Position numbers and translations under genes: made by a program
Source: an uncultured Myxococcales bacterium
Lineage (GTDB): Bacteria > Myxococcota > UBA727 > CAYLZW01
Reading direction: 5' to 3'
Assembly (NCBI GenBank): GCA_964388085.1
Contig: CAYLZW010000002.1
Coordinates: forward strand, 225 to 64,224
Length of the DNA: 64,000 bases
Shown here: positions 9,513 through 60,703 of the stretch, piece by piece
How positions within the stretch are numbered: the stretch's first letter is position 1
Layout of the letters: each line of letters starts with the position of its first letter
Notes under the pieces: generated by a model
Seen by the model: the letters and a program-made list of their open reading frames with translations, nothing else
Database searches by the model: none
What the model was told of the DNA's origin: nothing

Positions 9513-9519
9513 CGCCGGC

Positions 9520-13202: not shown

Positions 13203-13709
13203 ATGCCGGAGACCGGGAACTTGCGCTGGGAGGTCGAGAACGACGCGGACGGCGCCGCGCGGCTGGTGCTGAGCGGAGACATCGACGACCACGTGCGTAT
13301 GGGCGCGGTCGAGCCGCCGGCCGCGAGCAAGCTCGTCGTCGACCTCTCGGGCGTGCGGCGCATCAGCTCCTTCGGGGTAAAGGAGTGGGTGCCCTTCGTG
13401 CGCGGGCTGAAGGCGCGCGGCGGCTCCATCGTCTTCGAGCGCTGCCCGAGCGTCATGGTGCGGCAGTTCAACATGGTGCCGTCGACGCGCGCCGGCGCCG
13501 TCATCAAGAGCGTTTTTTTGCCCTACTTCTGCGACGACTGTGACGACGAGCGGAACGACTTCCTGCTCGAGGTGAGCGGCGACGAGCCGCCCTTCGAGCC
13601 GCCCGCGCGCGCCTGCCCCGAGTGCGGCGCCGAGCTCGAGTTCGACGACGTACCCGAGTCCTACTTCGGCTTCTGGACGCAGCGAGACGAGCTCATCGAC
13701 GAGGACTGA
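13203..13709 (+). CDS. Standalone STAS (anti-sigma-factor-antagonist-like) domain + C4 zinc-ribbon protein
   Basis: VVDLSGVRRISSFGVKEWV...IVFERCPSVMVRQFNMV aligns to SpoIIAA DLSFMDSSGLGVI...MVVCAISPAVKRLFDMS, with the conserved phospho-acceptor position (SS). Followed by FCDDCDDE...CPECGAEL. Overlaps the stop of the giant kinase. Paralog of 42763..43254 and of the kinase A/B/C N-termini. Confidence 0.75.
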   Translation: MPETGNLRWEVENDADGAARLVLSGDIDDHVRMGAVEPPAASKLVVDLSGVRRISSFGVKEWVPFVRGLKARGGSIVFERCPSVMVRQFNMVPSTRAGAVIKSVFLPYFCDDCDDERNDFLLEVSGDEPPFEPPARACPECGAELEFDDVPESYFGFWTQRDELIDED

Positions 13710-31546: not shown

Positions 31547-33377
31547 CGCTCGCGGCCGGCGGCTTGTCGTCGGTGGCGTCCGCGGCGTCGACATCCGCGC
31601 CGTCGGGCTCCTCGTCGTCGTCTTCCTCGTCCGCTTTCGCGGAGTCCTCGGCGTCGGTGTCGTCGGCGCCGGAGTCCGCCCCGTCGGCCTCGCTCGCCGT
31701 CTTCGCGTCGCTCGACGCACTCCCGACGGACGGGGTCGCGGGTTGAAACAGCGCGGCGTGCTCGGGCGAGAGCTGGCCGAGCTCCGCGCGCAGCTCGAGC
31801 GCGGTGCGCATGGCCTGATACTGCGCCTCGACCTCTTGCAGCTCCGCCTGCGTCACCAACACCTGGGCTTGCAGCAGGTCGAACACCGTCGAGCGTCCCC
31901 CGCGGAGCTTCCGGCCCTCGGCGTCGAGCGCGACGGCCGCGAGCCGCTTGGCCTCGGCGGCGGCGCCGAGCACGGTTCCGCGCTGCTCGACGTCGTTCAG
32001 CAGCCGCGCGATGCGGTTGTCGATCATGGCCTCCGTCGCGGTGCGCTCGAAGCGCAGGGCCTCCACCTCGTGACGACGTGCCGTCTCGCGATTCCCTTCC
32101 GTCCCCGGCCACAGCGGGGTGGAGCCGCTGACGACGACGCCGACGCTCCAGGAGCGCCCGACGTTGAGCAGCGCCTTCTCGTAGCCGCCGTGCAGCGCTG
32201 GGTCGACGAGGCAGGGACCCAGCTGATTCGGCAGCGTGCCTCCGTGGCAACGCGACTCGCCCGCGAGACCACCGACGCTCCCCTCGAGCCCGACGCTGAG
32301 CTCGGGGAGGCCATCGAGCGCCACCGCCTCGCGCTCCGTCTCTGCGCGCGCGATCTCCGCGTCGAGGGCGAGGAGCGCGGGGCTGCGCTCCCTCGCGCGC
32401 GCTTTGGCCGCGTCTCTCGCGACGCCGGGAGCGCGCCAGGGGTTGAGCGGCGCGACCTCTACAGACGCTGCGTCCATGGGGACGCGCAGCTCCTCGACGA
32501 GGCGCCCGAGCGCCGCTTCGCGATCCGCCACCGCCGCGGACAGCTCGACGTTCCGCTGCGCGACCGTCTGCTCGGCGATGGCGAGCTCGAGCCGGGAGAG
32601 CTGTCCACCGTCGATGAGCTGCTGGGTCAGGCGCTGGAAGCTCTCGGCGAGCTTCACGGCGCTTGCGCGTAGGGCGACCACGCGCGCCGCGCGCGCAGCG
32701 TCGAGCCAGGTGCCCGCGATGCGGCGATACAGCGCGTCTCGCCTCGCTGCGGCGGCCGCGTTCATCACGGTGACGCGCGCGTCCGCCGTGCGGATCGCCG
32801 CCATGGTACGGGACGGCCACAGCCCGAGCAGGAGAGGCTGCTCGACGCGCAGTCGTAAGCGAGGCTCGTAGCGAGGGGCCAGGGCCGCGCCGACGTCTTC
32901 GGTGAAGAGCGCGTCGTTGTCGAGGCGGAGCTGGTAGGTGGTCCCTGTCGGCAACAGGCCGAGCACTCCGGCGCCCGCGGTGACGCCTTGTGTGTCGACG
33001 CGTCCGTCGGGGTACAGATACGAGATGACCGGCCCGACGCTCGGCTGCGCGTCGTGGACGACGCCGCCGTCGATCACGAGGCGGGGAATGAAGATGGACC
33101 ACTCCGCGGCCGCGGCGGCCTCGCTCGCCTTGACGCGCTCGGCCGCCGCGCGCAGCTCCGGATGCTGCTCGTCGACGAGGCGCAGCGCGTCCGCGAGCGT
33201 CAACGTCCGCACCGGCGCGGGGGCGCCAGGCGACGCCTGCCCTCCTGTTGGTTCCGCTGCCGGCGTCGCTGCCGGCGTCGGCTCGGCCGCCTCTGCTGTC
33301 GCTACGGTGAACAGCGCCGCCACGAGGATCGCTCGAGCGCGGCGGGACACTATCGATTCACTTCGCAACGGCGGCAT
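31500..33377 (-). CDS. TolC-family outer membrane efflux protein with acidic/basic low-complexity C-terminal tail
   Basis: Signal peptide RARAILVAALFTVATAEA, then LTLADALRLVDEQHPELRAAAERV and repeated coiled-coil/beta segments typical of OMF. The 3' end overlaps the sufS-like 3' end by ~46 nt (convergent). Confidence 0.8.
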   Translation of the reverse strand: MPPLRSESIVSRRARAILVAALFTVATAEAAEPTPAATPAAEPTGGQASPGAPAPVRTLTLADALRLVDEQHPELRAAAERVKASEAAAAAEWSIFIPRLVIDGGVVHDAQPSVGPVISYLYPDGRVDTQGVTAGAGVLGLLPTGTTYQLRLDNDALFTEDVGAALAPRYEPRLRLRVEQPLLLGLWPSRTMAAIRTADARVTVMNAAAAARRDALYRRIAGTWLDAARAARVVALRASAVKLAESFQRLTQQLIDGGQLSRLELAIAEQTVAQRNVELSAAVADREAALGRLVEELRVPMDAASVEVAPLNPWRAPGVARDAAKARARERSPALLALDAEIARAETEREAVALDGLPELSVGLEGSVGGLAGESRCHGGTLPNQLGPCLVDPALHGGYEKALLNVGRSWSVGVVVSGSTPLWPGTEGNRETARRHEVEALRFERTATEAMIDNRIARLLNDVEQRGTVLGAAAEAKRLAAVALDAEGRKLRGGRSTVFDLLQAQVLVTQAELQEVEAQYQAMRTALELRAELGQLSPEHAALFQPATPSVGSASSDAKTASEADGADSGADDTDAEDSAKADEEDDDEEPDGADVDAADATDDKPPAASVKKRRGGKRSRGRRR

Positions 33378-33421
33378 GATGGCGGCGAAAGTATAGCCCC
33401 ATCAGCCGACGAGAGCGCCAC

Positions 33422-35890
33422 ATGCACCCTCCCCTGTTACCGACCCCGCCCCAGGGCGCGCACGAGAGCGCGCGAGGCATCTCTCGCGTGCTCTCGGGGC
33501 ACCGTCTCGCGCGCATCGGACTTCGGCGCCTCGGGCAGGCGCGCGTGGTGTCCGCGCTCTCCGAGCTGCGCGTCGTGGCGTCGTCGCACGAGGCTGCGTT
33601 CGCGGCGACGGTCGCGGCCGAGGTCGCGCGGCGGAGCGGAGACCTGCGTGGCGCTGCCGCGCTGCACAAAGACGCGGCGGAGCAGTGGCGAGAGGCCGGC
33701 AACGCGTCCCTCTCCGCCGTCGCGCTCGCGCTCAGCGTCGAGGACGCCGTGCTCTCCGGCGAGCTGCAGAGCGCGCAGGCGAACCTGCGCGACGTCGAGG
33801 CGGCCGGCGGATCGGTGCACGTCGCGAACGCGTTCTTGAGCTTCGCGCGCGGCGACACCGCGGCCGCGCGCGCGTCCTTCAAGGTGTTGATGGACGCGGC
33901 GCCCGGCGACGCGTGGGCGGCCTGCTGGGTCGACGCCTACGGAGCCGAGGTCCTCGTCGAGATGGGCGCGCTCGTCGGGGCCCAACAGGCGCTCGACAGG
34001 CTCGGCGGCAGGCTCTCCCCCGAGCACCGCTTCTCCGAGGCGTTCCTGCGACACGCCGTGCTGCGCGCCCGCCATGAGTCCTTGCGCCGCCTGACGCTCG
34101 GCGGTGATGAGGACGACGAGAAGGCCAAGCTGCACGCGCTCGTCGTACGCGCGCAGCGCTACGCCCAGGGGTTCCCGCTCTATCGCGCGTGGGCGCATCA
34201 GGTCGCGGGGGAAGAGGCGCTGCTCAACGCGGGCGACCCCGCCGCCCTCTTCGACAAGGCCATCGCGGACGCCGAGGAGGCCGGCAGCCCCTACCTGCAC
34301 GGGCGCCTATTGGCCCGTCAGGTCGAGTCGATGCGCGCCGTCCAGGAGCGGCGCTCCAACCCGCGTGCCTTGCGCGCGCGCAGCCTGCTGCTCGACTCCG
34401 GCGCGACCGGCTTCCTCGGCGCGCTGACGACGTCGAAGGGCGGCGCTCCCGAACGGATGCCCTCGCGCATGTCGATCGCGCTGCGCCTCGAGACGTCGCT
34501 CGATCAGATGAACCTGAGCGACGAGGCGGGGCTCGACGCCGTCATCGAGGTCAGCCGCCACCTCCAGAGCGTGCGCAGCCTCGACGAGCTGCTCGAGCGC
34601 ATCGTCGACTCGGTCTCGCGCGTGCTGCGCGCCGAGCGAGCCGCCCTGCTCAAGCACGACGGAAGCGAGTTCGAGTGCCTGGTCGCGCGCGGCATCGCCG
34701 CCGCCGACGTTCGCGAGGGCAACAAGGGTGTCTCGTTCGGCGTCGTGCGCGAGGCGATGCGCTCGGGAGAGCCGGTGCTGTCGGACAACGCGCTGGCCGA
34801 CGCGCGCTTCATGGATCGGGCGTCGGTGATGGCGACCGACATCCGCTCGGTGCTGTGCTCGCCCATCCGCACCAAGGACCACACCTTCGGCTTCCTCTAT
34901 CTCGACCGCCGCCTCACCGGTGTGCCGTTCTCGCCCGAGCACCTCGACCTCCTGGCCGCGTTCTCCACGCAGGTCGCGGTCGCCTGGGAGAACGCCGTGT
35001 CGTTCGAAGAGATCGCGCGCCTCAATGAGGGCCTCGAGCGGAAGGTCAGCGATCGCACCGTCGAGCTGCGCAAGAAGAACGACGAGCTGCAGACCACCCT
35101 CGACGAGCTCACCAACACGCGCCTCAAGCTGGCCGAGGCCGAGCGCGACGCGCTCGAGAAGGAGATGCAGCTCGCGCGCGACATTCAGCGTTCGATCCTG
35201 CCCCCCGAGGACACGCAGCGGCTGAGCGGCCTGTCGGTGTGCGGCCAGGTGATCCCCGCGAGCTATTGTGGCGGCGACTTCTGGGGGTACGCCGCGCTTC
35301 CCGACGGGCGCACGCTCGTCATCATCGCCGACGTCACCGGGCACGGAATGGCGTCGAGCTTGATCACCGCGGTGGCGCGCTCCTGCCTCGACACCCTGCG
35401 AGAGCAGGAGGCCATCCGCTCCGCCGCCGACGTGCTGCGCACCATGAACCAGGTCATCTTCGCGTCCGCGCACGGGAAGCTCTGCGCCACCGCGTTCGCC
35501 GGCATCTTCGATCCGGCGGCGCGGCAGCTCTCCTTCGGCAACGCCGGACACAACTTCCCGTATCTGCTCCGCGAGGGCGCCGACGCCGCGCCGCTCGTAG
35601 CAGCCGGCACCCGCCTCGGGGAGGCCGCGAACACCGACTTCGAGACGCACGTGCGAGAGATCCTGCCGGGCGATCGGCTGGTGCTGTTCACCGACGGCAT
35701 CATCGAGTGGCCGAACGCCAAGGGGAAGGACTACGGAGACCGGCGCTTCCGCAAGTCCGCGCAGGCGCGACGGGGCGAGGCGCCGGACGAATGCATCCGC
35801 GGCCTCATCGACGACGCCACGGCGTACACGGACGGCATCGAGCGTGACGACGATCTGACGCTGGTGATCGTCGACGTCGCCACCGAGTGA
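33422..35890 (+). CDS. GAF domain + PP2C-family (SpoIIE/RsbU-like) Ser/Thr phosphatase with N-terminal TPR-like region
   Basis: PP2C motifs GGDFWGY, IADVTGHGMASSL, FGNAGHNFP, LFTDGIIE, DDLTLVIVD. Preceded by a GAF-like segment (LDELLERIVDSVSRVLRAERAALL...FLYLDR) and a coiled coil. Confidence 0.85.
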   Translation: MHPPLLPTPPQGAHESARGISRVLSGHRLARIGLRRLGQARVVSALSELRVVASSHEAAFAATVAAEVARRSGDLRGAAALHKDAAEQWREAGNASLSAVALALSVEDAVLSGELQSAQANLRDVEAAGGSVHVANAFLSFARGDTAAARASFKVLMDAAPGDAWAACWVDAYGAEVLVEMGALVGAQQALDRLGGRLSPEHRFSEAFLRHAVLRARHESLRRLTLGGDEDDEKAKLHALVVRAQRYAQGFPLYRAWAHQVAGEEALLNAGDPAALFDKAIADAEEAGSPYLHGRLLARQVESMRAVQERRSNPRALRARSLLLDSGATGFLGALTTSKGGAPERMPSRMSIALRLETSLDQMNLSDEAGLDAVIEVSRHLQSVRSLDELLERIVDSVSRVLRAERAALLKHDGSEFECLVARGIAAADVREGNKGVSFGVVREAMRSGEPVLSDNALADARFMDRASVMATDIRSVLCSPIRTKDHTFGFLYLDRRLTGVPFSPEHLDLLAAFSTQVAVAWENAVSFEEIARLNEGLERKVSDRTVELRKKNDELQTTLDELTNTRLKLAEAERDALEKEMQLARDIQRSILPPEDTQRLSGLSVCGQVIPASYCGGDFWGYAALPDGRTLVIIADVTGHGMASSLITAVARSCLDTLREQEAIRSAADVLRTMNQVIFASAHGKLCATAFAGIFDPAARQLSFGNAGHNFPYLLREGADAAPLVAAGTRLGEAANTDFETHVREILPGDRLVLFTDGIIEWPNAKGKDYGDRRFRKSAQARRGEAPDECIRGLIDDATAYTDGIERDDDLTLVIVDVATE

Positions 35891-38332: not shown

Positions 38333-39316
38333 TCAGCGTGCCAGGAAGACGTTGAACGACTTTGGGCGCTCCGAGAAGTCGCGATAGCGGCCGCGGATGT
38401 CGATGACGCCGATGAGCTCGGTCCGCCGGCCGGGGTGCACGTTGATGATGAACTGGGAGAGCGTCTCGAAGAGATAGTAGAGCCCGAGCCCCGCCCCGCC
38501 CTCCTTGTCGTCCACCTGATCGCTCCCCTTGCGGAAGCACTTGCCGAGATAGGCGACGACCGTCTCCGTGGCGAGCGATCCGAAGGGGTCGCGCACCGAG
38601 ATGCCGAGCTTGCGGCCGTCGGTGCAGAAGACGGCCTCCACCGACTTCCCGGCGGCGAGCTCTACCTCTTCGGTGCGGCTCAGGTGCGCGAAGCAACGCT
38701 CGCCGGCGTCGTTCGTGGGCGCGTTGTAGATGGCGTTGGTGATGAGCTCATCGGCCGCGCTCTGAAACAGCTCCACGAAGCGCGCTTGGGCACCCTTGCG
38801 CGTGGCGAAGGCGGCGGCGGCCCGGATGGCGGCGAAGCGATCGGAGGCGCGCGAGAGCGTGAGTCGCTCGTGCTCCGCGCCCCAGGGGAAGTACTTCTCG
38901 AGGCCGAAGATGTCGTCGCGCAGGATCTTCTGCACCGTGACCAGCAGCTCGTCGCCGTCGAGGTCACCGCTGCGCGCCAATAGGTGCGTAAGCGTGTGGC
39001 GCGCGAACAGCCCGGCCAGCTCGGTGCGCTGCGCTCCGCCCATGAAGAGCACGAAGCGCCCCGCGTCCTGCTGCCGCGCGAAGCGCTCGAAGATCGCGTC
39101 CCGCGCGCCTTCTTCGATCGCTTCATAGTCGACGACGACGAGATCGGCGTCGTCTGCCGCGACCTCGTCGGGCGTCGCTACGATCCGTACGTCGTCGACG
39201 ACGGCGCGGGCGATGCGTCCCAGGTCGCGCAGCGACGTCTTGTCCCCGACGAGAAACACGCGCTGCGCGGCACCCGGCCGCGCCTGTGGCGACGGAGCGT
39301 CGTCGGGCCGGTTCAT
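38333..39316 (-). CDS. Receiver-like domain + GHKL (RsbW/SpoIIAB-like) ATPase, paralog 2
   Basis: N-box ADELITNAIYNAP, G1 DPFGSL, G2 GGAGLGL. N-terminal CheY-like segment (ADLVVVDYEAI). Start MNRPDD overlaps the upstream stop (ATGA). Paralog of 45395..46360. Confidence 0.7.
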   Translation of the reverse strand: MNRPDDAPSPQARPGAAQRVFLVGDKTSLRDLGRIARAVVDDVRIVATPDEVAADDADLVVVDYEAIEEGARDAIFERFARQQDAGRFVLFMGGAQRTELAGLFARHTLTHLLARSGDLDGDELLVTVQKILRDDIFGLEKYFPWGAEHERLTLSRASDRFAAIRAAAAFATRKGAQARFVELFQSAADELITNAIYNAPTNDAGERCFAHLSRTEEVELAAGKSVEAVFCTDGRKLGISVRDPFGSLATETVVAYLGKCFRKGSDQVDDKEGGAGLGLYYLFETLSQFIINVHPGRRTELIGVIDIRGRYRDFSERPKSFNVFLAR

Positions 39317-40401
39317 GCGGGAGTCAGATCCGCGGCGGAGCGGTCCGGCGCGGCGCTGGGCGCGCGCTCTTCGCAGACGCGTACGCGCCAACCGATGCGA
39401 CCATCCACGCGCCCTTCGTCGAGCGACTCCCGTTCCACGATCTGCACCTCGACGGCGCCCATCACCCGGGGCGAGAGGATGTCGAGCGACAAGATGTCAC
39501 CCACGTCATACGGCACGAAGAACGCCCTCCGCGGCACGAGCAAGGCGCCCGCCTGCAGGTCGCCTCGCAGCAGGAAGAAGTCGACGCGCGTGCCGTGGCG
39601 CGCGCGCACGCGGATCTGGCCAGGCGAAGCCTCCGAGCGCTTCGTCGTCGCTGGCCTCACGCGCATCACGTTCGTGTCGCGCACGAAGCGGGTGATGGCC
39701 GCCCGTGCCGGGGCCGACACCGCGACGAACTCCACGCCCATGCGTATGCGCTCGGCGCCGGTCGGGCCCGTGAAGCGCTCGCGCCAACGAACGCGCGCGT
39801 TCAGCTCCGCCGCCTGCTCGAAGACATTGATCTCGAAGGTCAGCCCCTCGAGCTCTTCGTGCTCGAGGCCGCACTCGATCATCGCGCCGCAGGCGCTGAT
39901 GTTCACCAGCTCGCCCTCGAACTGAAGGCCGGACTGGCCGCTGATCTCGTCGTTGACGGCGGCGCGCTCGGCGAGCCGGTGCAGCGTCACGTTCGGCAGC
40001 ATCGCCAGGCGCCGCATGAGCTGTCCGAACGCTCCCTCCGGCCAGACGAACACCTGGCGCAGGCCGAGCTTCGCGGCGCGTCGCGTCGAGCCCGCGCTGC
40101 GCGTCGACGAGCACGCGATGAACACGGCGGAGTCCGGTGTTTCGGCGCAGCGTTCGGCCACGTGCGCCCAGATCTTCTCCGGCGCGTTGCTGCCGATGGC
40201 GAGGTCGACGAGCACGAACGCTTTGCCCTTCGCCCCGTCGATCGCCTCGCACACAGCCCGAACGGAGCGGGCGCGCACCACGTCGATGCCCGCGCGAGCG
40301 AGCAGCTCGCGCTTGCCGTCATCGAGCGAGAGGCGATGCAGCACCACGCGCCCGTGGCCGCCCCGCTCCCCCTCTTCACGTTCGCCCGCGGTCGACGTCA
40401 T
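39313..40401 (-). CDS. Response-regulator receiver + PilZ-domain protein
   Basis: Receiver-like AFVLVDLAIG...KLGLRQVFVWP. PilZ motifs RLAERAAVNDE (RxxxR) and NISACGAM (D/NxSxGG-like). The second C-terminal beta-barrel may be a degenerate PilZ. Confidence 0.65.
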   Translation of the reverse strand: MTSTAGEREEGERGGHGRVVLHRLSLDDGKRELLARAGIDVVRARSVRAVCEAIDGAKGKAFVLVDLAIGSNAPEKIWAHVAERCAETPDSAVFIACSSTRSAGSTRRAAKLGLRQVFVWPEGAFGQLMRRLAMLPNVTLHRLAERAAVNDEISGQSGLQFEGELVNISACGAMIECGLEHEELEGLTFEINVFEQAAELNARVRWRERFTGPTGAERIRMGVEFVAVSAPARAAITRFVRDTNVMRVRPATTKRSEASPGQIRVRARHGTRVDFFLLRGDLQAGALLVPRRAFFVPYDVGDILSLDILSPRVMGAVEVQIVERESLDEGRVDGRIGWRVRVCEERAPSAAPDRSAADLTPA

Positions 40402-40513: not shown

Positions 40514-42760
40514 TCACCCGCGGGGCGGCTTCTTTCGCTTCGGCGCCTTTGCCGGTGCGGCCGCCTCAGCGGTCTGTCGGAGCGCGCCGTGAAGGGTGAT
40601 GCCGCCGTCGATGGAGATGGTCGAGTGCGTGGGCGTCAGAAGCGGCAGGTCCATGGCGCCCGACTCGTGGGAGCGCGCGGCGAGCGCCTCGAGCCACTGC
40701 GAGAGATGAGCGGCCGTGGCCACGCGAGCGATCGCGACCAGCGTCGCCTCGAGCTCAAGCTGCAGCGCTCTCGCCGACGAGAAGCGCGCGTCCGGCTCGC
40801 GGCTCACGCAGCGCGCGATGATGTCGTCCAGCGCGCCCGGCACATCGGGGCGCACGGAACGGACCGAGGGCACCGGCTCGTTCAGCACCGCGAACATCGA
40901 CATGTACTCGCTGTCGCGGCGGAACAGCGGCGTGCCGGTCAGCATCTCCCACAGCACCACGCCGACGGCCCAGAGGTCCGTGCGCCGATCGACGTCACCG
41001 CGCGCGGGGTCGATCTGCTCCGGCGCCATATAGATGACCTTGCCCTTCAGGTTCCCCGCGCGCGTCTCGAGCAGCGAGTGCGCCACCTTGGAGACGCCGA
41101 AGTCCGTGAGCTTCACGGCGCCGTTCAGGGACAACAGGACATTGTGCGGCGAGACGTCGCGGTGGACCAGCTCCAGCACCCTGCCGTCGTCATCGGCGCA
41201 GCTGTGCGCCGCGTGCAGGCCGGCACAGATATCGGACGCGATGCGACACGCCAGCTCGACGGGCAGCGCCACGTCCAGGTGCTGCGCGGCGCTGATGACC
41301 GAGCGCAGGTCCCAGCCGTCGACGAGCTCCATGGCGATGAAGTAGCCGTCGTCGTCTTGGCCGAGATCGAAGATCTGCACGACGTTCGGGTGCGTGATGG
41401 CCGCCGCCACACGCGCCTCTTGCAGGAAGAGCTGAGAGAAGTGTTCGTTGGCTGCCAGCTCCGGCAGGATTCGCTTGAGCGCGACCTGCTTGACGAAGCC
41501 CTCGGGCCCCCGCTGCTTGGCGACGGAGACCTCCGCCATACCGCCGCGCCCGAGCGGTCGGACGGCCTCGTAGCGGGTGAGCGCGGAGCCGCTCAGCGTC
41601 CCCGTCGAGGGCGGCGCGCTCGCCGGCACACGGACGGCGCCGACGTCGGGCAGCGCTTCGCCGGGATGCGCTGCCAGGTAGGACATCACCGCGCTCGGCA
41701 CGCGCTCGGCGAACAGGTCGAGGACCTCCGTGGCCCCAGCGGCGCTGTCGACCGGCCATGGGGCGCCGCACGCGGGACAATTCGCGCGTGGCTCGCCGGC
41801 GTGCACAGGAGAACGATCCGTGGACGACCTCGCGAGCAACGCCTTCATCGCGATCGCGTCTAGCTCCAGGGTGACGAGCTTCGCACAGCTCGCGCACGAC
41901 GACGACAGCAGCACGGTGGCGACGCGTCCCGCGAGCGCCGCCTGCAGCGGAGCGTTGCCCGTGTCCAGCAACGAGAGCGGGACCCTCGCCCAATACACGT
42001 CCGCGTCCGCGCTCTCTGCGACGTCGAGCAGCCTGCTGCTGCCAGCGTCGTCGACGCTGGTGACGCCCGCCAGCACCACGAGCACGATCCCCTCGAACCC
42101 GTCCGCGAGGCGCCGGAGTCGCGCCTTCGACGACACGCAGCCCTGAAGCCACAGGGAGGTGACGAGGCCGGTCACCTCCTTTTGGGCACGAAAGGGAGCG
42201 GGCCGAGGCGACGTCGCCGCGCCGAGCGCGACGTCGACCAGCGCGTTCAGCGCCGACGGCAACGGCGGTGAGCCCTGCGTGCGCGCGAACGACAGGTAGG
42301 CCTCGGGCACGTCGTCGAGCTCGGCCTCGGCGCCACAGCGATGACAGCGCGCCACGGGGAGCGGCGCGCTCGGCTGCAGCACGCTCTTGCCCGGCGGCGT
42401 CCGCAGGTCCACGAGGAGGTCGGTCTCGACGTCGCACGCCTCACACACGTAGGGCAGATAGAAGCTGACGAGCGCGGCGCCTCCGGCGAAGCCGCCCACC
42501 ATATTGAGCTGCGCCACGATCGCGGGGCGCGCGTGGATGATGCAGGCGTGCTCTACGTCGAGCGCGCCCATGGCGGAGACCCATTCGCGCACGCCAAACG
42601 ACGTGATGCGCCTCACCCCGTCGAGGTCGAAGACGACGAGGCCCGCCAGATCGCGCAGGTCCGCTCGCTGGAAGCTGGCGTCGAGCTCCCCCGCGATGTG
42701 GACGAGCGTGCCTCCCGGCAGCTTGCGCTTGTCGATGCGCAGCGTCTGGCTCGGCGCCAT
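40514..42760 (-). CDS. 2x(STAS + zinc ribbon) - Hanks Ser/Thr kinase, paralog C
   Basis: Start MAPSQTLRIDK. STAS-1 VVFDLDGVRRITSFGVREWV + VCEACD...CHRCGAE. STAS-2 with SCASCAK...CPACGAP. Kinase motifs GRGGMAEV, VALKRI, HRDVSPHN, DFGVSK, YMAPEQ. Confidence 0.85.
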   Translation of the reverse strand: MAPSQTLRIDKRKLPGGTLVHIAGELDASFQRADLRDLAGLVVFDLDGVRRITSFGVREWVSAMGALDVEHACIIHARPAIVAQLNMVGGFAGGAALVSFYLPYVCEACDVETDLLVDLRTPPGKSVLQPSAPLPVARCHRCGAEAELDDVPEAYLSFARTQGSPPLPSALNALVDVALGAATSPRPAPFRAQKEVTGLVTSLWLQGCVSSKARLRRLADGFEGIVLVVLAGVTSVDDAGSSRLLDVAESADADVYWARVPLSLLDTGNAPLQAALAGRVATVLLSSSCASCAKLVTLELDAIAMKALLARSSTDRSPVHAGEPRANCPACGAPWPVDSAAGATEVLDLFAERVPSAVMSYLAAHPGEALPDVGAVRVPASAPPSTGTLSGSALTRYEAVRPLGRGGMAEVSVAKQRGPEGFVKQVALKRILPELAANEHFSQLFLQEARVAAAITHPNVVQIFDLGQDDDGYFIAMELVDGWDLRSVISAAQHLDVALPVELACRIASDICAGLHAAHSCADDDGRVLELVHRDVSPHNVLLSLNGAVKLTDFGVSKVAHSLLETRAGNLKGKVIYMAPEQIDPARGDVDRRTDLWAVGVVLWEMLTGTPLFRRDSEYMSMFAVLNEPVPSVRSVRPDVPGALDDIIARCVSREPDARFSSARALQLELEATLVAIARVATAAHLSQWLEALAARSHESGAMDLPLLTPTHSTISIDGGITLHGALRQTAEAAAPAKAPKRKKPPRG

Positions 42761-42762: not shown

Positions 42763-43254
42763 TCAAGTGGAGGTACGTCCCGCCGACTCGTCGACGAAGG
42801 CGAGATACGACTCCGGCGTGTCGTCGAGCTGCATCTCGCCGCCGCACTCCGGACAGGGGGCGCACTCGTCGAGCGTCGGTCGTCGCCCCGGCTGCAGCTC
42901 GAGGGGGAGCGTACGCTCGTCGTCACACGCCTCACAGAAATAGGGCACGAGGATCGACGTCACCGCGGCGTCCCCCCGCATGGTCGCGATCATGCTGAGC
43001 TGCCGGACCATGACGGGCGAGCAGCGCTCGAGCTCGACCTTGGTGGCTTTGCTCGATAGGCGCTGCAGAAAGCCGATCCACTCGCGCACGCCACAGGAGT
43101 TGATGCGTTGGACCTCGGACAGGTTCAGCACCACGCGCTCTGTCGCCGCCGCGACGACACCCGAGAAGTCGGCCTCTTCCGTGATCTCGCCCCTCATGAC
43201 GAATCGATGGGTCGCGCCGCTCTCCTCGAGGCTCCAGGTCAGACCGTCGGTCAC
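42763..43254 (-). CDS. Standalone STAS + zinc-ribbon protein (paralog of 13203..13709)
   Basis: VVLNLSEVQRINSCGVREWI...VELERCSPVMVRQLSMI; FCEACDDE...CPECGGEM. GTG start overlapping the kinase B stop (GTGA). 2 nt before the kinase C ATG. Confidence 0.75.
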   Translation of the reverse strand: MTDGLTWSLEESGATHRFVMRGEITEEADFSGVVAAATERVVLNLSEVQRINSCGVREWIGFLQRLSSKATKVELERCSPVMVRQLSMIATMRGDAAVTSILVPYFCEACDDERTLPLELQPGRRPTLDECAPCPECGGEMQLDDTPESYLAFVDESAGRTST

Positions 43255-45395
43255 GGGACCTCCTCATCCGGTATGGACATCGTCACCTCCGGCCAGGCGT
43301 CGACCTCCGTCTGGGTCCGGTCGAAACCACGCTCTTCCTCGTCGTTCGGGAGGAGCGCGCCGTGCGGGGGCGTGAAGTCCAGGCGACGGATCTCCCCCTC
43401 AGCGTATCCCTGTCTCGCCAGCCCGTGCAGCCAGTGCGCCAGGTGTGCCGAGCTGGCCGGTTGGCCGATGTCGAGGAGCACGCGCTCGAGCGCGAGGTGG
43501 AGGTGGCGCGCCGTCTCGAAGCGATCCGTCGGCAAGCGCGCCGTCGCGCGACGGATGACGTCGACCAGCGACGGGGGAACGTCCGGCCGCTTCTCCTCGA
43601 TGGGCGGGATGTCAGCTTCGAGCGCGGCCCGCATGGAGGCCAGCTCTTCGTTGCGCCACAGCGCCGGGACGCCGGTGAGACACTCGTGCAGCACCAGGCC
43701 GGCGGCGAACACATCGACGCGGCGGTCCACCGCGCCGAGGGTGCCGTCGAGCTGCTCGGGAGAGATGTAGATGACCTTGCCGCGCACCGTGCCCGGCCGG
43801 GTGCCGAGGTTCGCGCCGGCCGGCTTGGAGATGCCGAAGTCGGTCACCTTGACGCCGCCTTGCACCGAGATGAGCACGTTGTCCGGCGAGACGTCTCGGT
43901 GAATGATCTCGAGGCGTCGGCCGTCCTCGCCGCGCGCCGAATGGGCGGCGTGCAGCCCGGCGGCGACGTCGCTGACGACGCGGCAGCACAGCTCGATGGG
44001 GAACGACCGCTTGAGCCGGCGGGCGTAGCGCAGCACGCTGCGCAGGTCCCACCCGCGCACGTACTCCATGGCGATGAAGTAGTCCGCGCCCTCTTGTCCG
44101 AGGTCGTGGATCTGCACCACGTTCGGGTGGGAGATGCGAGCGGAGAGGCGCGCCTCCCGCAGGAACATCTCGGAGAGCTCCGGATCGCGCGTGAGCTCGG
44201 GCAGCACGCGTTTGACGACGACGCGCTTCTTGAACCCGCCGGGACCGAGCACCTCGGCGAGCAGGACCTCGGCCATGCCGCCTCGCCCGATGCGGCGCAC
44301 GATGCGGTAGCGCTCACCGATGCGCCCGGGTGCGCGCGCGGAAGCGGTGTCCTTCGGCTCGACGGGGGTCGGCTCGCCGCCGGGTCGATCGCGGAGATAG
44401 TCGGCGAGCTCGATCGGTGACTCGCCCGCCAGCAGGTCCTTCAACGTCGCCAGCATGTCCGCGGTCAGCCACTCGGCGGCGCGTCCACCGCCGTCGACTC
44501 GAGCGATCTCCTGCGCGAGGATGCGCGCGTCGAACTCGAGCGTCTTCCGATGTGGCGGCGTCAGCAGCGCCGAGAGCACGCGACCGCGAAACGCCCGTAC
44601 GCCCGCGGGTGGCAACGACTGCAGCAGAGCGAGCGAGACGCGCGCGAAGTACGCGTTGGTGCGCTCCGCCAGCTCTCGCAAGCGTTCGGCGCCGAGCTCG
44701 TCCATACCGGTGACACCCGCGCAGATGACGACGACGTGCCCCTCGAGCCCATCGAGCAGGCGCTTGGTGCGCAGGCGGCGATCGATGTGCCCGCCGATCC
44801 ACAGCGCGGTGACGTCACCCTCGACCTCTTTGCGCAGCTGAAAGCTCGACGAGGGCGTCGCGCCCTCGAGCAAGCCGAGCAGACGGCTGACGGCGCGCGG
44901 CGGCGACGGCTCCGGCGCCGAGGACACGAACGAGAGATACGAGGAGGCGATGTCGTCGAGCTCCGCCGGCTCTTTGCAGCGCGGACAGGGCAGCGGTCTC
45001 GGCCCCCCGCGTCGAAGGGCGAGCACTGCCTCCTTCGCGCTCATCAGCACCTGCTGCTCGTGATCGCAGTGCTCGCAGATGTACGGCAGGTACAGGCTCA
45101 GCACCTCGCCACGCCCCACGAAGCCCGCCACCATGTTGAGCTGCGCGACGATGGCAGGGCGACAGCGGATGAGCCCGAGGAAGGAGGCGTCGATCGACTC
45201 GAGCGCGGCGATCCACTCGGGCACGCCGTAGCTCGTGACGCGCGTGACGCCGTCGAGATCGAGCACCACGGCGCCCTGCAGGTGGTCGAGCTTGTCGCGC
45301 GGGAAGCCCGCGCCGATGGTGCCGCTCAACGTCACCAGCGACACGCCGGGCGCCGGCGAGCTGACGATCGCTTCGAGTGAGGCGGGCGCCGTCAT
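43251..45395 (-). CDS. 2x(STAS + zinc ribbon) - Hanks Ser/Thr kinase, paralog B
   Basis: Start MTAPASLEAIV (TGATG overlap with the upstream stop). VVLDLDGVTRVTSYGVPEWI + ICEHCDHE...CPRCKEP. Kinase motifs GRGGMAEV, VVVKRV, HRDVSPDN, DFGISK, YISPEQ. Confidence 0.85.
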   Translation of the reverse strand: MTAPASLEAIVSSPAPGVSLVTLSGTIGAGFPRDKLDHLQGAVVLDLDGVTRVTSYGVPEWIAALESIDASFLGLIRCRPAIVAQLNMVAGFVGRGEVLSLYLPYICEHCDHEQQVLMSAKEAVLALRRGGPRPLPCPRCKEPAELDDIASSYLSFVSSAPEPSPPRAVSRLLGLLEGATPSSSFQLRKEVEGDVTALWIGGHIDRRLRTKRLLDGLEGHVVVICAGVTGMDELGAERLRELAERTNAYFARVSLALLQSLPPAGVRAFRGRVLSALLTPPHRKTLEFDARILAQEIARVDGGGRAAEWLTADMLATLKDLLAGESPIELADYLRDRPGGEPTPVEPKDTASARAPGRIGERYRIVRRIGRGGMAEVLLAEVLGPGGFKKRVVVKRVLPELTRDPELSEMFLREARLSARISHPNVVQIHDLGQEGADYFIAMEYVRGWDLRSVLRYARRLKRSFPIELCCRVVSDVAAGLHAAHSARGEDGRRLEIIHRDVSPDNVLISVQGGVKVTDFGISKPAGANLGTRPGTVRGKVIYISPEQLDGTLGAVDRRVDVFAAGLVLHECLTGVPALWRNEELASMRAALEADIPPIEEKRPDVPPSLVDVIRRATARLPTDRFETARHLHLALERVLLDIGQPASSAHLAHWLHGLARQGYAEGEIRRLDFTPPHGALLPNDEEERGFDRTQTEVDAWPEVTMSIPDEEVP

Positions 45396-46360
45396 CAACC
45401 GGCCACGAAGACGTTGAAAGACTTCGGGCGCTCCGCGAAGTCGCGAAAGCGGCCGCGGATGTCGATGAGGCCGATCATCTCGGTGCGCCGTCGGGCGTCG
45501 ATGTTGACGACGAGCTGGGAGCAAGACTCGTACACCGTGAACAGGCCGAGGCCGGCGCCGCCGGAGCGATCGCTTATCTGATCGTCTCCCCGACGGAAGC
45601 AGCGGCCCAGGTAGTCGACGATCGTGTTCGCGCCGAGGGAGCCGAAGGGGTCGCTGACCGCGCAGCCAAGCGTGCGCCCGTCCGACGAGAGCACCACCTC
45701 GATGCCCTCGCCGCGCTGCAACGACACAGGCTCCCCCCGCTTCAGGTGGGAGAAGCGCTCGGCGCCGTGCTCGTCGATGGGCGCGTTGTAGATGGCGTTC
45801 GTCGTCAGCTCGTCGACCACCGTACAGAAGAGCTCCACCATGCGGCTCTGCGTGCCGAGGGCCTCCGCCAGCGCGCGCGCCTGCTCGCGGATCGCGTCGC
45901 GCCCGCCGCTGTTGTCGAGCGTGAAGCGCAGGTGCGAGGCGCCCCAGGGGAAGTACTTCTCGATGCCGAAGATCTCGTCACGCAGGATCTTCTGCACCGT
46001 GATGAGCAGCTCCTGCCCGTCGACCTCCTCGTGGCGGCCGAGCATGTTGCGCACGCCGAGCTCGCCGAACAGCACCGACAGAGCCTCCGGCCGGCGCACC
46101 GCCGAGCACAGCACGAGGCGTCCACGGTCGCGCTCTGCACAGAAGCGCTGAACGGACCGGGCCCGCTCCTGATCGTCGAGAGCGTCGTAGTTCAACAGTA
46201 CGAGGTCGAAGGCGCGCGCGGGAGCGTCCTCGACGCGCTCCACGGTGTCGACGTGAGGCACGATGGAGCGCAGCACGCGGGCCACCGAGCGCGCGTGCTG
46301 CTTGTCCGCATCTACCAGGAGCCCGGACAGCGCGCCGGGTTCCTCGGGGCTCGGCGGCAT
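45395..46360 (-). CDS. Receiver-like domain + GHKL (RsbW/SpoIIAB-like) ATPase, paralog 1
   Basis: Start MPPSPEEPG, 2 nt after the kinase A stop. VDELTTNAIYNAP (N-box), DPFGSL, GGAGLGL. The receiver-like N-terminus has Asn at the usual phospho-Asp position (LVLLNYD). Confidence 0.7.
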   Translation of the reverse strand: MPPSPEEPGALSGLLVDADKQHARSVARVLRSIVPHVDTVERVEDAPARAFDLVLLNYDALDDQERARSVQRFCAERDRGRLVLCSAVRRPEALSVLFGELGVRNMLGRHEEVDGQELLITVQKILRDEIFGIEKYFPWGASHLRFTLDNSGGRDAIREQARALAEALGTQSRMVELFCTVVDELTTNAIYNAPIDEHGAERFSHLKRGEPVSLQRGEGIEVVLSSDGRTLGCAVSDPFGSLGANTIVDYLGRCFRRGDDQISDRSGGAGLGLFTVYESCSQLVVNIDARRRTEMIGLIDIRGRFRDFAERPKSFNVFVAG

Positions 46361-46362: not shown

Positions 46363-48567
46363 CTACTCCAGCTCCGTGTCGTGCTTGCGGACGCGGGTGT
46401 GGAGGCTCGCCACCGCCCGGGCGCGCGCGCTGCCGTCGATGGTGTCGGTGGCGTCGAGGCCGCCGGTCTCGTGCGTGGGCGTCAGCAGCGGCGCGGACAG
46501 CTCGCCGCCCTCGAGCGCCTTCTCGACGAGACCCTCGAGCCACTGCGCGAGGTGGGCCGACGTCGCGGCGCGGCCCATCCCCATGAGGGCCGTCTCGAGG
46601 CCGAGCTGCAGATCGCGAGCGCTGCGGAAGCGCTCGTCGTGCTCGCGCCGCAGGGCCTGCTCCACGAGCTGCTCGAGCGAGCGCGGGCAATCGGCGCGCC
46701 GCTCGCGCACGCGGGGGATGGCCGCGTTCAACACGGCGTGCATGGAGCTGTACTCACTGTCGCGACGAAAGAGCGGCTCCCCGACGAGGATCTCCCAGAG
46801 CACGAGCCCGGTCGCGAACACGTCGCTGCGCGCGTCCACCGGCCCGAGCTGTCCGTTGATCTGCTCCGGCGCCATGTAGACGACCTTGCCCTTCAGTTGC
46901 CCCGAGCGCGTCTGGAAGAACGAGTTCGCCACCTTCGAGACGCCGAAGTCCGTCAGCTTCACGGCGCCCGCGTTCGAGAGGAGGATGTTGTGCGGGCTCA
47001 CGTCCCGGTGGACGATGCCGAGCGCGTTCCCCTCTTCGTCGGTGCAGGTGTGCGCGGCGTGGAGCCCCGCGCAGATGTCACTCGCGATGCGACAAGCGAG
47101 CTCGATGGGCACGCGCTGCTCGAGGCGACGAGCGGCCGTCAGCACGGTGCGCAGGTCCCAGCCCTTCACGTACTCCATGGCGATGAAGTAGGCGTCGCCT
47201 TCCTGGCCGAGCTCGAAGATCTGCACGACGTTCGGGTGGGTGATGGCGGCGGCGACGCGCGCCTCCTGCAACAACATCCCCGAGAACTGCTGGTGACGTG
47301 CGAACTCCGGCAGGATCTTCTTCAGCGCTACGCGCTTGACGAAGCCTTGTGGGCCACGCTGCGTCGCCAGGAACACCTCGGCCATGCCGCCGCGCCCGAG
47401 CAGGCGCACGCTCTCGTACTTCGAGAGCAGGGACTGGGTCTCGACCCGAGGGTTCGAGCCGCTGCTGGCCGTGCTGACCTCCGACGTCGACACGCCCGCG
47501 AGCGCGACGCCGGGGTGCGCGTCGAGGTACGCCTTGACGTCGAGCGGGATGGCGGGCGCCATCAACGCCAGCGCGCGCTGGACGCTCTCCGCGCGATCGG
47601 TGCGCAACACGGCGCTGCCGCACACCGCGCAGCCCAGCGCACCCCCGCCGACGTGCGCCTTCAACGTGCCGGCGTCGAGCTCGACGTCGATCGGTCCGCA
47701 TTTGCCGCACGACGCGCGCACGAGGACGGTGGCGACGCGCCCCTTCGCGCGGGCGAGCGCGCTCTCATCCAGCATCCCGGCCACGCGGAGCGGCAGGCGC
47801 GCGAGATAGACCTCGGCGCCGCCGATGTGCATCAGCTCGTCGAGGCGGCGCTCGCCCCCGGGCGCGATCTCGGTGATGCCCGCCAGCACGGCCACGACCA
47901 CGCCCTCGAGGCCGTCGACGAGGCGCTTGAAGCGGGACTTCTTGTCGATGGCGCCCTGCAGCCAGAAGCCGGTGACCTTGCCGTGCACCTCTTTCTGAAC
48001 GGCGAGCTGCGCCGGTGCGTGCGCGGGCGCCTTCCCGAGCGCGCGATCGACGATTCCCTCCAGCTCACGCGCGAGCTTTGGCGGACGCTGGCTCGAGACG
48101 AACGAAAAGTACGCCTCGGGCGAGTCGTCGAACTCGGCCTCCTCGCCGCAAGCCTCGCAGCGGTGCACGGGCGCTTCGCCGCGCGCCACGTGCTCGTCGT
48201 CGTGACGCAGGTCGATCAGCACCTCGCTCTCGTGATCGCAGTGCTCGCAGAGGTACGGCAGGTACATGCTGACCAGCGCGCCGTTCCCGGCGAACCCGGC
48301 CACCATGTTGAACTGCGAGACCAGCGCCGGCCGCGCGTTCACGAAGCAGTAGACGTCGGCCGCGAGGCTCCGGAGGGCGGCGACCCATTCGCGTACGCCG
48401 AAGGACGTAATGCGCCGAACCCCGTCGAGATCGACGACGACCGCGCCGGCGAGCCCGTCGACCATCGCCCGGCTGGCGAAGTCCGCGTCGATCTCGCCGG
48501 AGAGGCGCACGATGGCACCTCCCGGGACGGCGAGCTTGTCGATGCGAAGCTGTGGATCTTTCGGCAT
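46363..48567 (-). CDS. 2x(STAS + zinc ribbon) - Hanks Ser/Thr kinase, paralog A
   Basis: VVVDLDGVRRITSFGVREWV + LCEHCDHE...CEACGEE; second module with SCGKCGP...CAVCGS. Kinase motifs GRGGMAEV, VALKKI, HRDVSPHN, DFGVSK, YMAPEQ. Start taken at the ATG (MPKDPQLRIDK) rather than the TTG at 48591. Confidence 0.85.
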   Translation of the reverse strand: MPKDPQLRIDKLAVPGGAIVRLSGEIDADFASRAMVDGLAGAVVVDLDGVRRITSFGVREWVAALRSLAADVYCFVNARPALVSQFNMVAGFAGNGALVSMYLPYLCEHCDHESEVLIDLRHDDEHVARGEAPVHRCEACGEEAEFDDSPEAYFSFVSSQRPPKLARELEGIVDRALGKAPAHAPAQLAVQKEVHGKVTGFWLQGAIDKKSRFKRLVDGLEGVVVAVLAGITEIAPGGERRLDELMHIGGAEVYLARLPLRVAGMLDESALARAKGRVATVLVRASCGKCGPIDVELDAGTLKAHVGGGALGCAVCGSAVLRTDRAESVQRALALMAPAIPLDVKAYLDAHPGVALAGVSTSEVSTASSGSNPRVETQSLLSKYESVRLLGRGGMAEVFLATQRGPQGFVKRVALKKILPEFARHQQFSGMLLQEARVAAAITHPNVVQIFELGQEGDAYFIAMEYVKGWDLRTVLTAARRLEQRVPIELACRIASDICAGLHAAHTCTDEEGNALGIVHRDVSPHNILLSNAGAVKLTDFGVSKVANSFFQTRSGQLKGKVVYMAPEQINGQLGPVDARSDVFATGLVLWEILVGEPLFRRDSEYSSMHAVLNAAIPRVRERRADCPRSLEQLVEQALRREHDERFRSARDLQLGLETALMGMGRAATSAHLAQWLEGLVEKALEGGELSAPLLTPTHETGGLDATDTIDGSARARAVASLHTRVRKHDTELE

Positions 48568-48845
48568 CTGTTTGGACGTCGACGGGGGCAACGAAGCGGC
48601 GCTTCATCCTCGCCTCCCCCCGTATCGTTGTCCAGGCGACCGCGTCGGGGTGAGACACGCGCACCGGCACCGGACGGCAGTGCGAGCGTTCCCCACAGCC
48701 GTTCCGCCACAGCGCGACAGGTTGCCCCCGTCGGCGAGCCGGGCCGTGAGCGTGCATGCCGTGCCAGGCGCCCGCGGAGCACGCAGCGGCTGGCGCGGTG
48801 TCTGCTTCGTTTGCGCTCACGTCATCACGACGCCGGGAGCCGCTC

Positions 48846-54766: not shown

Positions 54767-55152
54767 CGAAGGGGAGCACCGGAACGACGCGCTGGGTGAT
54801 CCCCGAGGGGTACATCCCGGGCGAGAGCCACGGACCGGCGCCGGCGATGACGAGCCACGAGACCGCGTGCATGTTGAACACGGGGGACCAAGATGCACAC
54901 GTCGAGATCTGGATCTATTTCCACGACCGCGCGCCCGCTGGTCCCTTCGTCGTCGTCGTGCCCGCCGAGCGCACGCTACACCTGCGCTTCAACGACCTGC
55001 GCGAGCCCGAGGCGATCCCGAAGGAGACCGACTATGCGTCGCTGATCCTCTCGGACGTCCCCATCGTCGTGCAGCACACGCGCCTCGACTCGCGCCAAGC
55101 GGAGCTATCGCTGCTCTCGACGATGGCCTTCCCCGACGAGCGCACGCCCTAG
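54763..55152 (+). CDS. ASRT-family (sensory-rhodopsin-transducer-like) small beta-sandwich protein
   Basis: 129 aa, with segments (AEGYIP, SHET.C.LN.GD.DAHVEI.IY, P.R.T.H.RFNDL, VPIVVQHTRLDSRQAE) that I recall as conserved in the ASRT family (memory-based, not checked against a database). ATGA overlap with the upstream stop. Confidence 0.5.
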   Translation: MTKGSTGTTRWVIPEGYIPGESHGPAPAMTSHETACMLNTGDQDAHVEIWIYFHDRAPAGPFVVVVPAERTLHLRFNDLREPEAIPKETDYASLILSDVPIVVQHTRLDSRQAELSLLSTMAFPDERTP

Positions 55153-58428: not shown

Positions 58429-58531
58429 GGCGCCGAGAGTATCAAAAGCGCGGGTACCCGCGTCACTCCGCCACCGCCCCCAAAGGGGTTGTTGACCCTT
58501 GCATGAACTCGCTAAGCAGGGAGACTCGAGC

Positions 58532-60649: not shown

Positions 60650-60703
60650 GCCTCGCCGAAGCTCGTGCGATCCCAGGACGTGCTCTGCGACGGATGACCG
60701 ACG

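Follow-up and report, generated by a model that had tools for sequence, protein, structure and literature searches.

The stretch of DNA analysed here (the window) comprises 64,000 nucleotides of contig CAYLZW010000002.1 from an uncultured Myxococcales bacterium, has a G+C content of approximately 70%, and encodes two paralogous proteins, termed W1 and W2, in which a receiver-like domain precedes a GHKL domain of the RsbW/SpoIIAB type. W1 (45395..46360, 321 amino acids [aa]) and W2 (38333..39316, 327 aa) were identified as open reading frames (ORFs) on the minus strand by their translations. An earlier reading of the DNA made from the letters alone (the sequence-only reading) had reported both ORFs, and every motif quoted in it was found: LVLLNYD at aa 53-59 of W1 (Asn57, codon 46190-46192, minus strand), LVVVDYE at aa 59-65 of W2 (Asp63, codon 39128-39130, minus strand), and DEL(T/I)TNAIYNAP, DPFGSL and GGAGLGL in both translations. 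W1 and W2 aligned end to end with 49% identity at an E-value of 1e-105, and their similarity is therefore not due to chance. Public gene calls identical to W1 and W2 were found (P0001, 321 aa, and P0008, 327 aa, respectively), and both start codons lie directly after the stop codons of the upstream genes.

The two genes belong to a tightly packed minus-strand row in the order K1, W1, K2, STAS-ZnR, K3, PilZ protein and W2, in which neighbours abut or overlap by a few bases. K1 (46363..48591; Pkinase E 1.5e-39), located directly upstream of W1, encodes a Hanks Ser/Thr kinase preceded by two modules, each consisting of a STAS domain and a zinc ribbon (STAS-ZnR), the first with and the second without a characteristic Ser. 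K2 (43251..45383; Pkinase E 1.3e-31), directly downstream of W1, and K3 (40514..42757; Pkinase E 6.9e-39) are also STAS-ZnR-Hanks kinases. Between K2 and K3 lies a gene for a stand-alone STAS and C4 zinc-ribbon protein of 163 aa (42763..43254), with the codon of Ser53 at 43096-43098 and the CxxC pairs at 42925-42936 and 42844-42855. The PilZ protein is encoded directly upstream of W2 (39313..40401; PilZ E 3e-9; RxxxR at 39964-39978 and NxSxxG at 39886-39903). On the plus strand, a GAF-SpoIIE phosphatase of the PP2C type is encoded at 33380..35890 (stop-to-stop ORF limits; SpoIIE E 2.5e-40, GAF E 8.6e-18).

The layout of a receiver-like N-domain followed by an RsbW/SpoIIAB-type GHKL domain, as put forward in the sequence-only reading, was supported by structure prediction, by Foldseek and by profile comparison (E 1e-4). 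The AlphaFold2 model of W1, built on a 48-sequence alignment (A1), had a mean predicted local distance difference test (pLDDT) score of 93.6 and a predicted TM-score (pTM) of 0.91, and consisted of a (beta-alpha)5 N-domain and an alpha/beta sandwich, the C-terminal Bergerat domain. The receiver-like domain covers aa 12-110 (46031..46327, minus strand; DSSP strands b1 12-16, b3 53-57, b4 82-86 and b5 105-108), helix alpha5 and a hallmark linker, VTxQKxLxxDIFGIEKYFPWG, cover aa 111-141 (45938..46030, minus strand), and the Bergerat/GHKL domain covers aa 142-321 (45398..45937, minus strand). The N-box, G1 and G2 motifs are found at 45779-45814, 45635-45655 and 45542-45562, respectively, and a C-terminal KSFNxF strand is found at 45407-45430, all on the minus strand. 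Both elements to which the earlier proposal had been tied, a receiver fold in the N-domain and an ATP lid in the C-domain, were present in the model; the lid segment between G1 and G2 (aa 243-266, 24 residues) had a lower pLDDT, as is typical for lids.

When the W1 model was compared with the PDB by Foldseek, the top match, over the full length, was LvrC, a protein composed of a receiver (REC) and an RsbW-like Bergerat domain (E 2e-7). The C-domain matched SpoIIAB (1l0o, 1tid, 1til and 1th8) and RsbW (6m36 and 6m37) at TMt values of 0.70-0.76 and 0.77-0.86, respectively, and further matches were UsfX and SiaB. The N-domain matched many receivers at a probability of 1.00, with TMt up to 0.82 and a root-mean-square deviation (rmsd) of 2.5-3 A, and the family profile matched PDB receivers at E 1.2e-4. 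The Foldseek matches placed the W family with stand-alone Bergerat folds of the SpoIIAB/RsbW kind that have no dimerization and histidine phosphotransfer (DHp) domain. The Pfam profile check proposed earlier was less favourable: neither protein reached a curated threshold for Response_reg or HATPase domains, in the Pfam scan PF00072 (Response_reg) matched neither of them up to an E-value of 1, the NCBIfam scan returned sub-threshold matches only and nothing useful, and a single-sequence PDB search gave no relevant match. The assignment of domains is thus based on structure prediction and the family profile. The predicted structure shows that W1 and W2 are built of a receiver-fold N-domain, a conserved alpha5-linker segment (VTxQK...DIFGIEKYFPWG) and an RsbW/SpoIIAB-type Bergerat domain.

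Residue columns, in W1 numbering, were counted over 101 relatives. In the family profile, position 57 of W1 coincides with the Asp that accepts the phosphoryl group in solved receivers, for example 8svz (VILD), and the position is therefore correctly assigned. At position 57, Asp was found in 40 sequences, Asn in 38, His in 8, Ser in 4, Ala in 3 and other residues in 8. The first acidic position (17) carried Asp or Glu in about half of the relatives, and the second, Mg-binding one (18) was acidic in 2. At the Thr/Ser position (86), Ser was found in 50, Thr in 12 and Ala in 18, and at the Lys position (109) Lys and Arg were found in 34 and 31, respectively. The equivalents of the acidic pair, acceptor, Thr/Ser and Lys are D-A, N, S and R in W1 and V-G, D, M and R in W2. 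None of the 43 copies in genome loci had the complete canonical receiver set, and whether the acceptor position held Asp or Asn showed no relation to the gene context (upstream kinase, downstream STAS). The receiver-like part was the least conserved part of the protein, its mean majority fraction being 0.38, whereas the GHKL part reached 0.55 and the segment of alpha5 and linker 0.64.

These findings do not sustain the contrast between an Asn and an Asp paralog implied in the sequence-only reading: W2 keeps the Asp but lacks the acidic pair, the Thr/Ser and the Lys, and the degeneracy is clade-wide. Because the family as a whole is degenerate at this site, the Asn of W1 is not a special event but rather one state of a relaxed position. 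The receiver of W1 and W2 is most likely a pseudo-receiver that has lost its phosphorylation site. Two-component input, also suggested in the earlier reading, was not upheld for either paralog and is unlikely because the whole Myxococcota clade is degenerate at the receiver site. One subclade (loci L021, L022, L023, L031 and L041) keeps the Asp, Thr and Lys equivalents and has Trp-Gly instead of the acidic pair; at the three of these loci that were checked (L022, L031 and L041), a PAS-histidine kinase (PAS-HisKA-HATPase_c) is encoded directly downstream of the W cassette.

The alignment of 48 sequences (A1) showed a weakly conserved N-terminal half, an extremely conserved VTxQKxLxxDIFGIEKYFxWG segment and a conserved C-terminal half. 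The linker is the most conserved segment of the family, with T121, K124, F131, G132 and Y136 each present in at least 96% of sequences. In the GHKL domain, E184, D237 and G240 were invariant (101/101), N188 was found in 100/101 and the glycines of G2 in 98-100/101; in A1, G272 was also invariant and G267-G270 were near-invariant. When the family was compared by hhalign with SpoIIAB, the N-boxes were aligned and nothing else. Thr121 (45998-46000), within VTxQK, is present in 96% of the Myxococcota clade and is replaced by Met or His in a spirochaete clade with canonical receivers that is described below; as an idea only, it could be a clade-specific phosphorylation site for the neighbouring Hanks kinases.

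The 163-aa neighbour has a STAS domain and, C-terminal to it, a C4 zinc ribbon (AlphaFold2 model, pLDDT 94.8), and Foldseek matched this model to the Haliangium anti-sigma antagonist 4hyl, SpoIIAA, RsbV and TM1442. In an alignment of 33 STAS-ZnR sequences (A3), S53 (INSCGVREW) and the four Cys were invariant, and in the model S53 is located at the N-terminus of helix 53-69, a place that we take to match the phosphorylated Ser58 of SpoIIAA. Eukaryotic C2H2 zinc fingers, which were the top PDB profile matches of STAS-ZnR, were discounted; the match covers the PY-CxxC spacing only. The N-termini of K1-K3 are the same STAS-ZnR module with the Ser conserved (A3). A second module was detected in K1 (aa ~199-336, ~47584-47995) at an hhalign probability of 92.6%, with the Ser replaced by Ala, and when K2 and K3 were read in the same register the Ser was replaced by Glu, with the Cys pairs also lost, and by Asp, respectively. 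The second modules of K1-K3 thus look like non-phosphorylatable or phosphomimetic copies. The catalytic loop of K1-K3 reads HRDVSPxN, with Ser where HRDxKxxN usually has Lys, and VAxK, DFG and APE are present.

A fifth STAS-ZnR module of the window is encoded on the plus strand at 13212..13709 (40% identity to the 163-aa protein, E 7e-42; STAS_2 match), just after a Pfam-detected Pkinase-AAA_16 (STAND-type) kinase gene at 9415-13188 on the same strand. This pair has no W gene alongside, and a similar Pkinase-AAA_16 gene flanks W at locus L002. In total, W1 and W2, five Ser-bearing STAS-ZnR modules and one GAF-SpoIIE gene, that is, the components of partner switching, are co-encoded in the window. 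The GAF-SpoIIE protein (33380..35890) may act as the phosphatase for STAS-P in this module.

The link to STAS phosphorylation proposed in the sequence-only reading was strongly supported by synteny and by gene fusions. Synteny was counted over the non-spirochaete loci. A STAS-ZnR gene was found directly downstream of W in 26/43 loci and a tandem-STAS-ZnR Hanks kinase directly upstream of W in 13/41; at least one STAS-ZnR module was present in 38 of 44 loci, and a SpoIIE-type PP2C was encoded within 10 kb of W in 21 of 44. In the called-gene tables, the order SpoIIE-W-STAS, with SpoIIE directly upstream of W, was found in L005 and L006, and the order SpoIIE / kinase-W-STAS was also seen. The fusions comprised Pkinase+W (P0175), W+STAS (P0207), W+PilZ (P0277) and a canonical REC followed, in the same chain, by W.

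Pfam families counted in 99 ORFs that neighbour W at 30 loci included PAS (13), GGDEF (7), HATPase_c (7) and HisKA (6). In these 99 ORFs no Sigma70 family reached two members, so that no enrichment was seen, and no Sigma70 family was found among the window ORFs scanned with Pfam, five of which matched no Pfam family. No HisKA-containing gene was found among the scanned window ORFs. The gene directly after W-STAS-ZnR encoded a PAS-GGDEF cyclase in 7/30 loci and a PAS-histidine kinase in at least three. A connection to cyclic di-GMP (c-di-GMP), which the sequence-only reading had based on a REC-PilZ neighbour, gained support from this PAS-GGDEF arrangement, from the W-PilZ fusion and from the intact motifs of the PilZ neighbour of W2, in which RxxxR and NxSxxG are invariant in three homologs. 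Its description of that neighbour as REC-PilZ was not supported, as the receiver nature of the N-domain was not shown by Pfam, PDB phmmer, a 3-sequence profile or hhalign against the W family. Homologs of the PilZ protein adjoin the module in L019 and L028. The L028 homolog (13398-14993, plus strand) has a C-terminal FHA domain, a phospho-Thr reader, and sits between two STAS-Hanks kinases, which suggests that the PilZ protein may read the output of Ser/Thr kinases.

A homology search returned 105 clusters, almost all labelled hypothetical. A full HMMER scan of 1.84 billion cluster representatives gave 3,855 matches at E <=1e-3 and 1,420 at E <=1e-30, so that at the stricter cut-off the family spans no fewer than 1,420 clusters at 50% identity. 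It has neither a Pfam nor an NCBIfam curated model, the annotation is hypothetical almost everywhere, and distant members reach Pfam PF00072 or PF13581. With a large family, no curated model and hypothetical labels, a family definition alone would improve annotation. The locus scan, with one genome per species, gave 52 loci. Myxococcota-type and other non-spirochaete genomes accounted for 42 of these, at 31-48% identity, and the remaining 10 were distant, at 21-27% identity (nine Spirochaetia/Leptospiraceae and one Candidatus Raymondbacteria). Two records of metagenome-assembled genomes (MAGs) have implausible labels, 'Bifidobacterium breve' for L027, a high-GC Myxococcota-like contig, and 'Leptospira interrogans serovar Manilae' for L054, and the organism labels of the loci call for caution.

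Nine of the distant proteins could be extracted; they share the DIFGIEKYF linker and have a canonical receiver (VEDxxS, DL(V/I)ITDIxMPG, LITAY and PK), which argues that the Myxococcota proteins form a derived clade in which receiver chemistry has been given up. Judged from these sequences, the Myxococcota W proteins are derived from a bona fide family of REC-RsbW-like response regulators. In the distant relatives (L049-L058) the G2 box reads HGRG(L/I)F instead of GGAGLGL, and no STAS-ZnR was detected in the spirochaete/Raymondbacteria loci. At L054 (8607-10720, plus strand), the sole distant locus whose neighbours were read, the W copy lies directly downstream of a HisKA-HATPase_c kinase gene, and its product matched Response_reg PF00072 at 57 bits, above threshold. 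This Leptospira member of the W family is not LvrC. The W locus of the window illustrates the conversion of a true response regulator, of the type found in the spirochaete clade, into what appears to be a phosphorylation-independent adaptor.

Taken together, these observations suggest that W1 and W2 are probably the kinase component of a partner-switching-like cassette specific to Myxococcota. The pseudo-receiver would take no phosphoryl group from a histidine kinase and would serve as a fixed structural or docking module. The fold, the conserved Ser, the gene adjacency and the fusions point to a GHKL domain that would bind and phosphorylate the invariant S53 of STAS-ZnR, a target that would be presented both by the small free protein and by the first of the two N-terminal modules on the neighbouring Hanks kinases. 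GAF- or HAMP-SpoIIE (PP2C) phosphatases would remove the phosphate. The least certain step is the output: rather than a sigma factor, it would be the activity of adjacent signalling enzymes, which at this locus are the three Hanks kinases with STAS modules and elsewhere PAS-GGDEF cyclases or PAS-histidine kinases. A connection of the module to c-di-GMP would be provided by PilZ proteins.

Several observations weigh against this interpretation. We infer the kinase activity of W, its substrate and its phosphosite alike. The GHKL assignment has weak points: W2 matched HATPase_c_2 (PF13581) at E 0.0011 and 19.4 bits, compared to a gathering threshold of 27.4, W1 matched HATPase_c alone at E 0.04 and 14.8 bits, compared to 26.4, the family profile matched solved GHKL domains weakly by HMMER (E ~0.7), and the G1 box is D-P-F-G and not the canonical DxGxG. 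In the genomic context, approximately 40% of loci are without a directly adjacent STAS-ZnR and about half show no PP2C within 10 kb, W2 itself adjoins no STAS gene but a PilZ gene upstream and a gene for a secreted SGNH protein downstream, all 52 loci come from MAGs, and the gene for a sigma factor could lie elsewhere in the genome. As one subclade next to PAS-histidine kinases keeps the Asp, Thr and Lys equivalents, some family members may be phosphorylated, and formally so may W2.

The last of these points would gain weight if W2, with its Asp63 at the acceptor position, were a working, phospho-accepting response regulator with an RsbW-like output under histidine-kinase control, and W1 (Asn) its inactive decoy paralog. 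This would agree with the canonical receivers of the spirochaete clade and the position of the L054 copy directly downstream of a histidine kinase, with the PAS-HisKA-HATPase_c genes directly downstream in L022, L031 and L041, whose subclade keeps the Asp, Thr and Lys equivalents, and with the phosphorylation of LvrC by LvrB (PMC13269768). However, W2 has V-G for the acidic pair, Met for Thr/Ser and Arg for Lys, position 18 is acidic in 2/101 relatives, neither W1 nor W2 matches Response_reg, no HisKA gene occurs among the window ORFs scanned, and Asp and Asn alternate at the acceptor position irrespective of gene context, which leaves a working W2 receiver quite improbable. A role as classical anti-sigma factor, in which W1 and W2 would sequester an alternative sigma factor encoded elsewhere until unphosphorylated STAS-ZnR frees it, as in RsbW/SigB and SpoIIAB/SigF, would agree with several observations: the closest solved folds of the C-domain are the anti-sigma factors SpoIIAB, RsbW and UsfX, the STAS partner is SpoIIAA/RsbV-like with PP2C phosphatases nearby, and LvrC and TciR have been proposed to act on sigma factors (PMC13269768, PMC12826045). 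We nevertheless regard it as unlikely: near W, sigma genes show no enrichment (fewer than 2 among 99 ORFs in 30 loci) and none was seen among the scanned window ORFs, the conserved neighbours and fusion partners are Hanks kinases, STAS-ZnR, PilZ, GGDEF and histidine kinases, and some RsbW-like kinases (SypE, HsbR and SiaB) are known to act without a sigma factor (in part PMC12826045).

W might also not be an enzyme at all. In such a case the GHKL domain would bind nucleotide only and the protein would be a non-catalytic adaptor assembling the STAS-bearing Hanks kinases, which would phosphorylate the STAS Ser themselves; being fused to STAS modules, these kinases are always close to that Ser. 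The atypical G1 box (DPFG), the sub-threshold Pfam scores and the existence of a Pkinase+W fusion are in keeping with such a scaffold. Yet the N-box Glu as catalytic base and the N-box Asn as Mg ligand, the Asp of G1 and the glycines of G2 are invariant or nearly so over 101 diverse sequences, a degree of conservation expected of an enzyme and unusual for a pseudokinase, and the W and STAS-ZnR pair also occurs without an adjacent Hanks kinase, for example beside PAS-GGDEF or PAS-histidine kinase genes. We therefore give a purely structural role little credence and favour W as the kinase of a partner-switching-like cassette.

A more specific form of this interpretation, which we put forward tentatively, is that W and STAS-ZnR may constitute a portable two-gene partner switch on signalling enzymes and not on a sigma factor, in which the linker and the pseudo-receiver would dock the target and the Myxococcota-specific Thr121 could receive feedback phosphorylation from the Hanks kinases. 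If so, the targets would be Hanks kinases with a built-in STAS-ZnR docking site at this locus and PAS-GGDEF or PAS-histidine kinase proteins elsewhere, and partner switching, c-di-GMP and the signalling of eukaryote-like Ser/Thr kinases would meet directly in the cassette as their hub.

Other features of the window were also recorded. Downstream of W2, a secreted-looking protein is encoded from 35904 to ~38150 on the minus strand, with a signal peptide, numerous Asp-rich repeats of the thrombospondin-type-3-like kind, 20 consecutive prolines and a GDSL/SGNH hydrolase domain; a homolog is present in L047. The region 20630-33401 is a possible cluster for a ribosomally synthesized and post-translationally modified peptide (RiPP) and its export, and includes HlyD (20630-22594), PqqD-peptidase M50-HlyD (22595-25165) and YcaO (25183-27624, minus strand), as well as an alpha/beta hydrolase, a class-V aminotransferase and an outer-membrane efflux protein (31500-33401). 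In L019 a YcaO homolog with 44% identity adjoins the module's PilZ gene, and L044 has a weaker YcaO homolog. The YcaO/export genes were considered as part of the W system and rejected, being conserved only in L019 and weakly in L044. A defence system was likewise rejected: W, STAS-ZnR and the PilZ protein had no PADLOC matches and K1 matched generic kinase models only. On the plus strand, a protein of the Anabaena sensory rhodopsin transducer (ASRT) family is encoded at 54715-55152 (E 1.4e-52), and Planctomycete-type PSCyt2/PSD2, DUF1501 and PSCyt1 genes lie in a row at 58496-62895, apparently unrelated to the W genes.

Retention of the receiver fold as an interaction module after loss of the phospho-acceptor chemistry is known from the pseudo-receivers of Myxococcus FrzS, KaiA and the plant pseudo-response regulators (PRRs); no fusion to a GHKL Ser kinase is known for any of them. 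Myxococcota possess very many eukaryote-like kinases, STAS proteins and SpoIIE phosphatases. W shares with Bacillus RsbW and SpoIIAB the Bergerat Ser-kinase fold with N-box, G1, G2 and lid, and, as in Bacillus partner switching (RsbV/SpoIIAA and RsbU/SpoIIE), its STAS partner has a Ser at the corresponding helix N-terminus and a PP2C is found in its neighbourhood. In contrast, RsbW and SpoIIAB have no N-terminal domain and the W family has no associated sigma factor gene, and the STAS partner of W differs from RsbV and SpoIIAA by an additional C4 zinc ribbon and by occurring also as tandem fusions to Hanks kinases.

The sequence-only reading had called the W architecture uncommon for an RsbW-type kinase, a claim that was not upheld in view of previous work on proteins combining REC with an RsbW-like domain. 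A REC-RsbW class is listed in Galperin's 2006 census of response regulators, as cited in PMC12826045, TciR of Vogesella indigofera is a REC-RsbW-like protein that has been studied genetically (PMC12826045), and the structure of the REC-RsbW-like LvrC of Leptospira interrogans has been solved (PDB 9qih; PMC13269768). LvrC, the best full-length Foldseek match of W1, resembles it in that a receiver fold lies N-terminal to an RsbW-like domain. The domain arrangement differs, with an rmsd of ~19 A over the full length, and LvrC has a canonical receiver (D53, Y-T switch), is phosphorylated by LvrB and is a proposed anti-sigma factor (PMC13269768), whereas in W1 and W2 the receiver site is degenerate, the linker is DIFGIEKYF and the gene linkage is to STAS-ZnR and Hanks kinases. 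TciR is likewise response-regulator-like, with an RsbW-like output domain in which the kinase residues are conserved, but it is paired with the histidine kinase TciK in a genome without an RsbV homolog (PMC12826045), whereas W has lost receiver chemistry and nearly always has an adjacent STAS partner.

Further parallels are SypE of Vibrio fischeri, which combines an RsbW-like Ser kinase with a receiver, acts on the STAS protein SypA and has a non-sigma output (PMC12826045, PMC10120452), and HsbR of Pseudomonas aeruginosa, in which an RsbW-like kinase with a receiver acts on the STAS protein HsbA (PMC2904497). In SypE and HsbR the receivers are functional and a PP2C is part of the same polypeptide, whereas the W system has a degenerate receiver and a separate PP2C. 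Fusions of STAS domains to eukaryote-like kinases have been on record from Sorangium since 2010 (PMC2887360); a cassette of pseudo-receiver RsbW-like kinase, zinc-ribbon STAS protein and PP2C could explain how such STAS-kinase fusions of Myxococcota are gated. Compared to these known systems, what is new is a large unannotated clade of pseudo-receiver proteins with a hallmark linker and a dedicated zinc-ribbon STAS partner, and the repeated association of this cassette with Hanks kinases, with histidine kinases and with enzymes and effectors of c-di-GMP.

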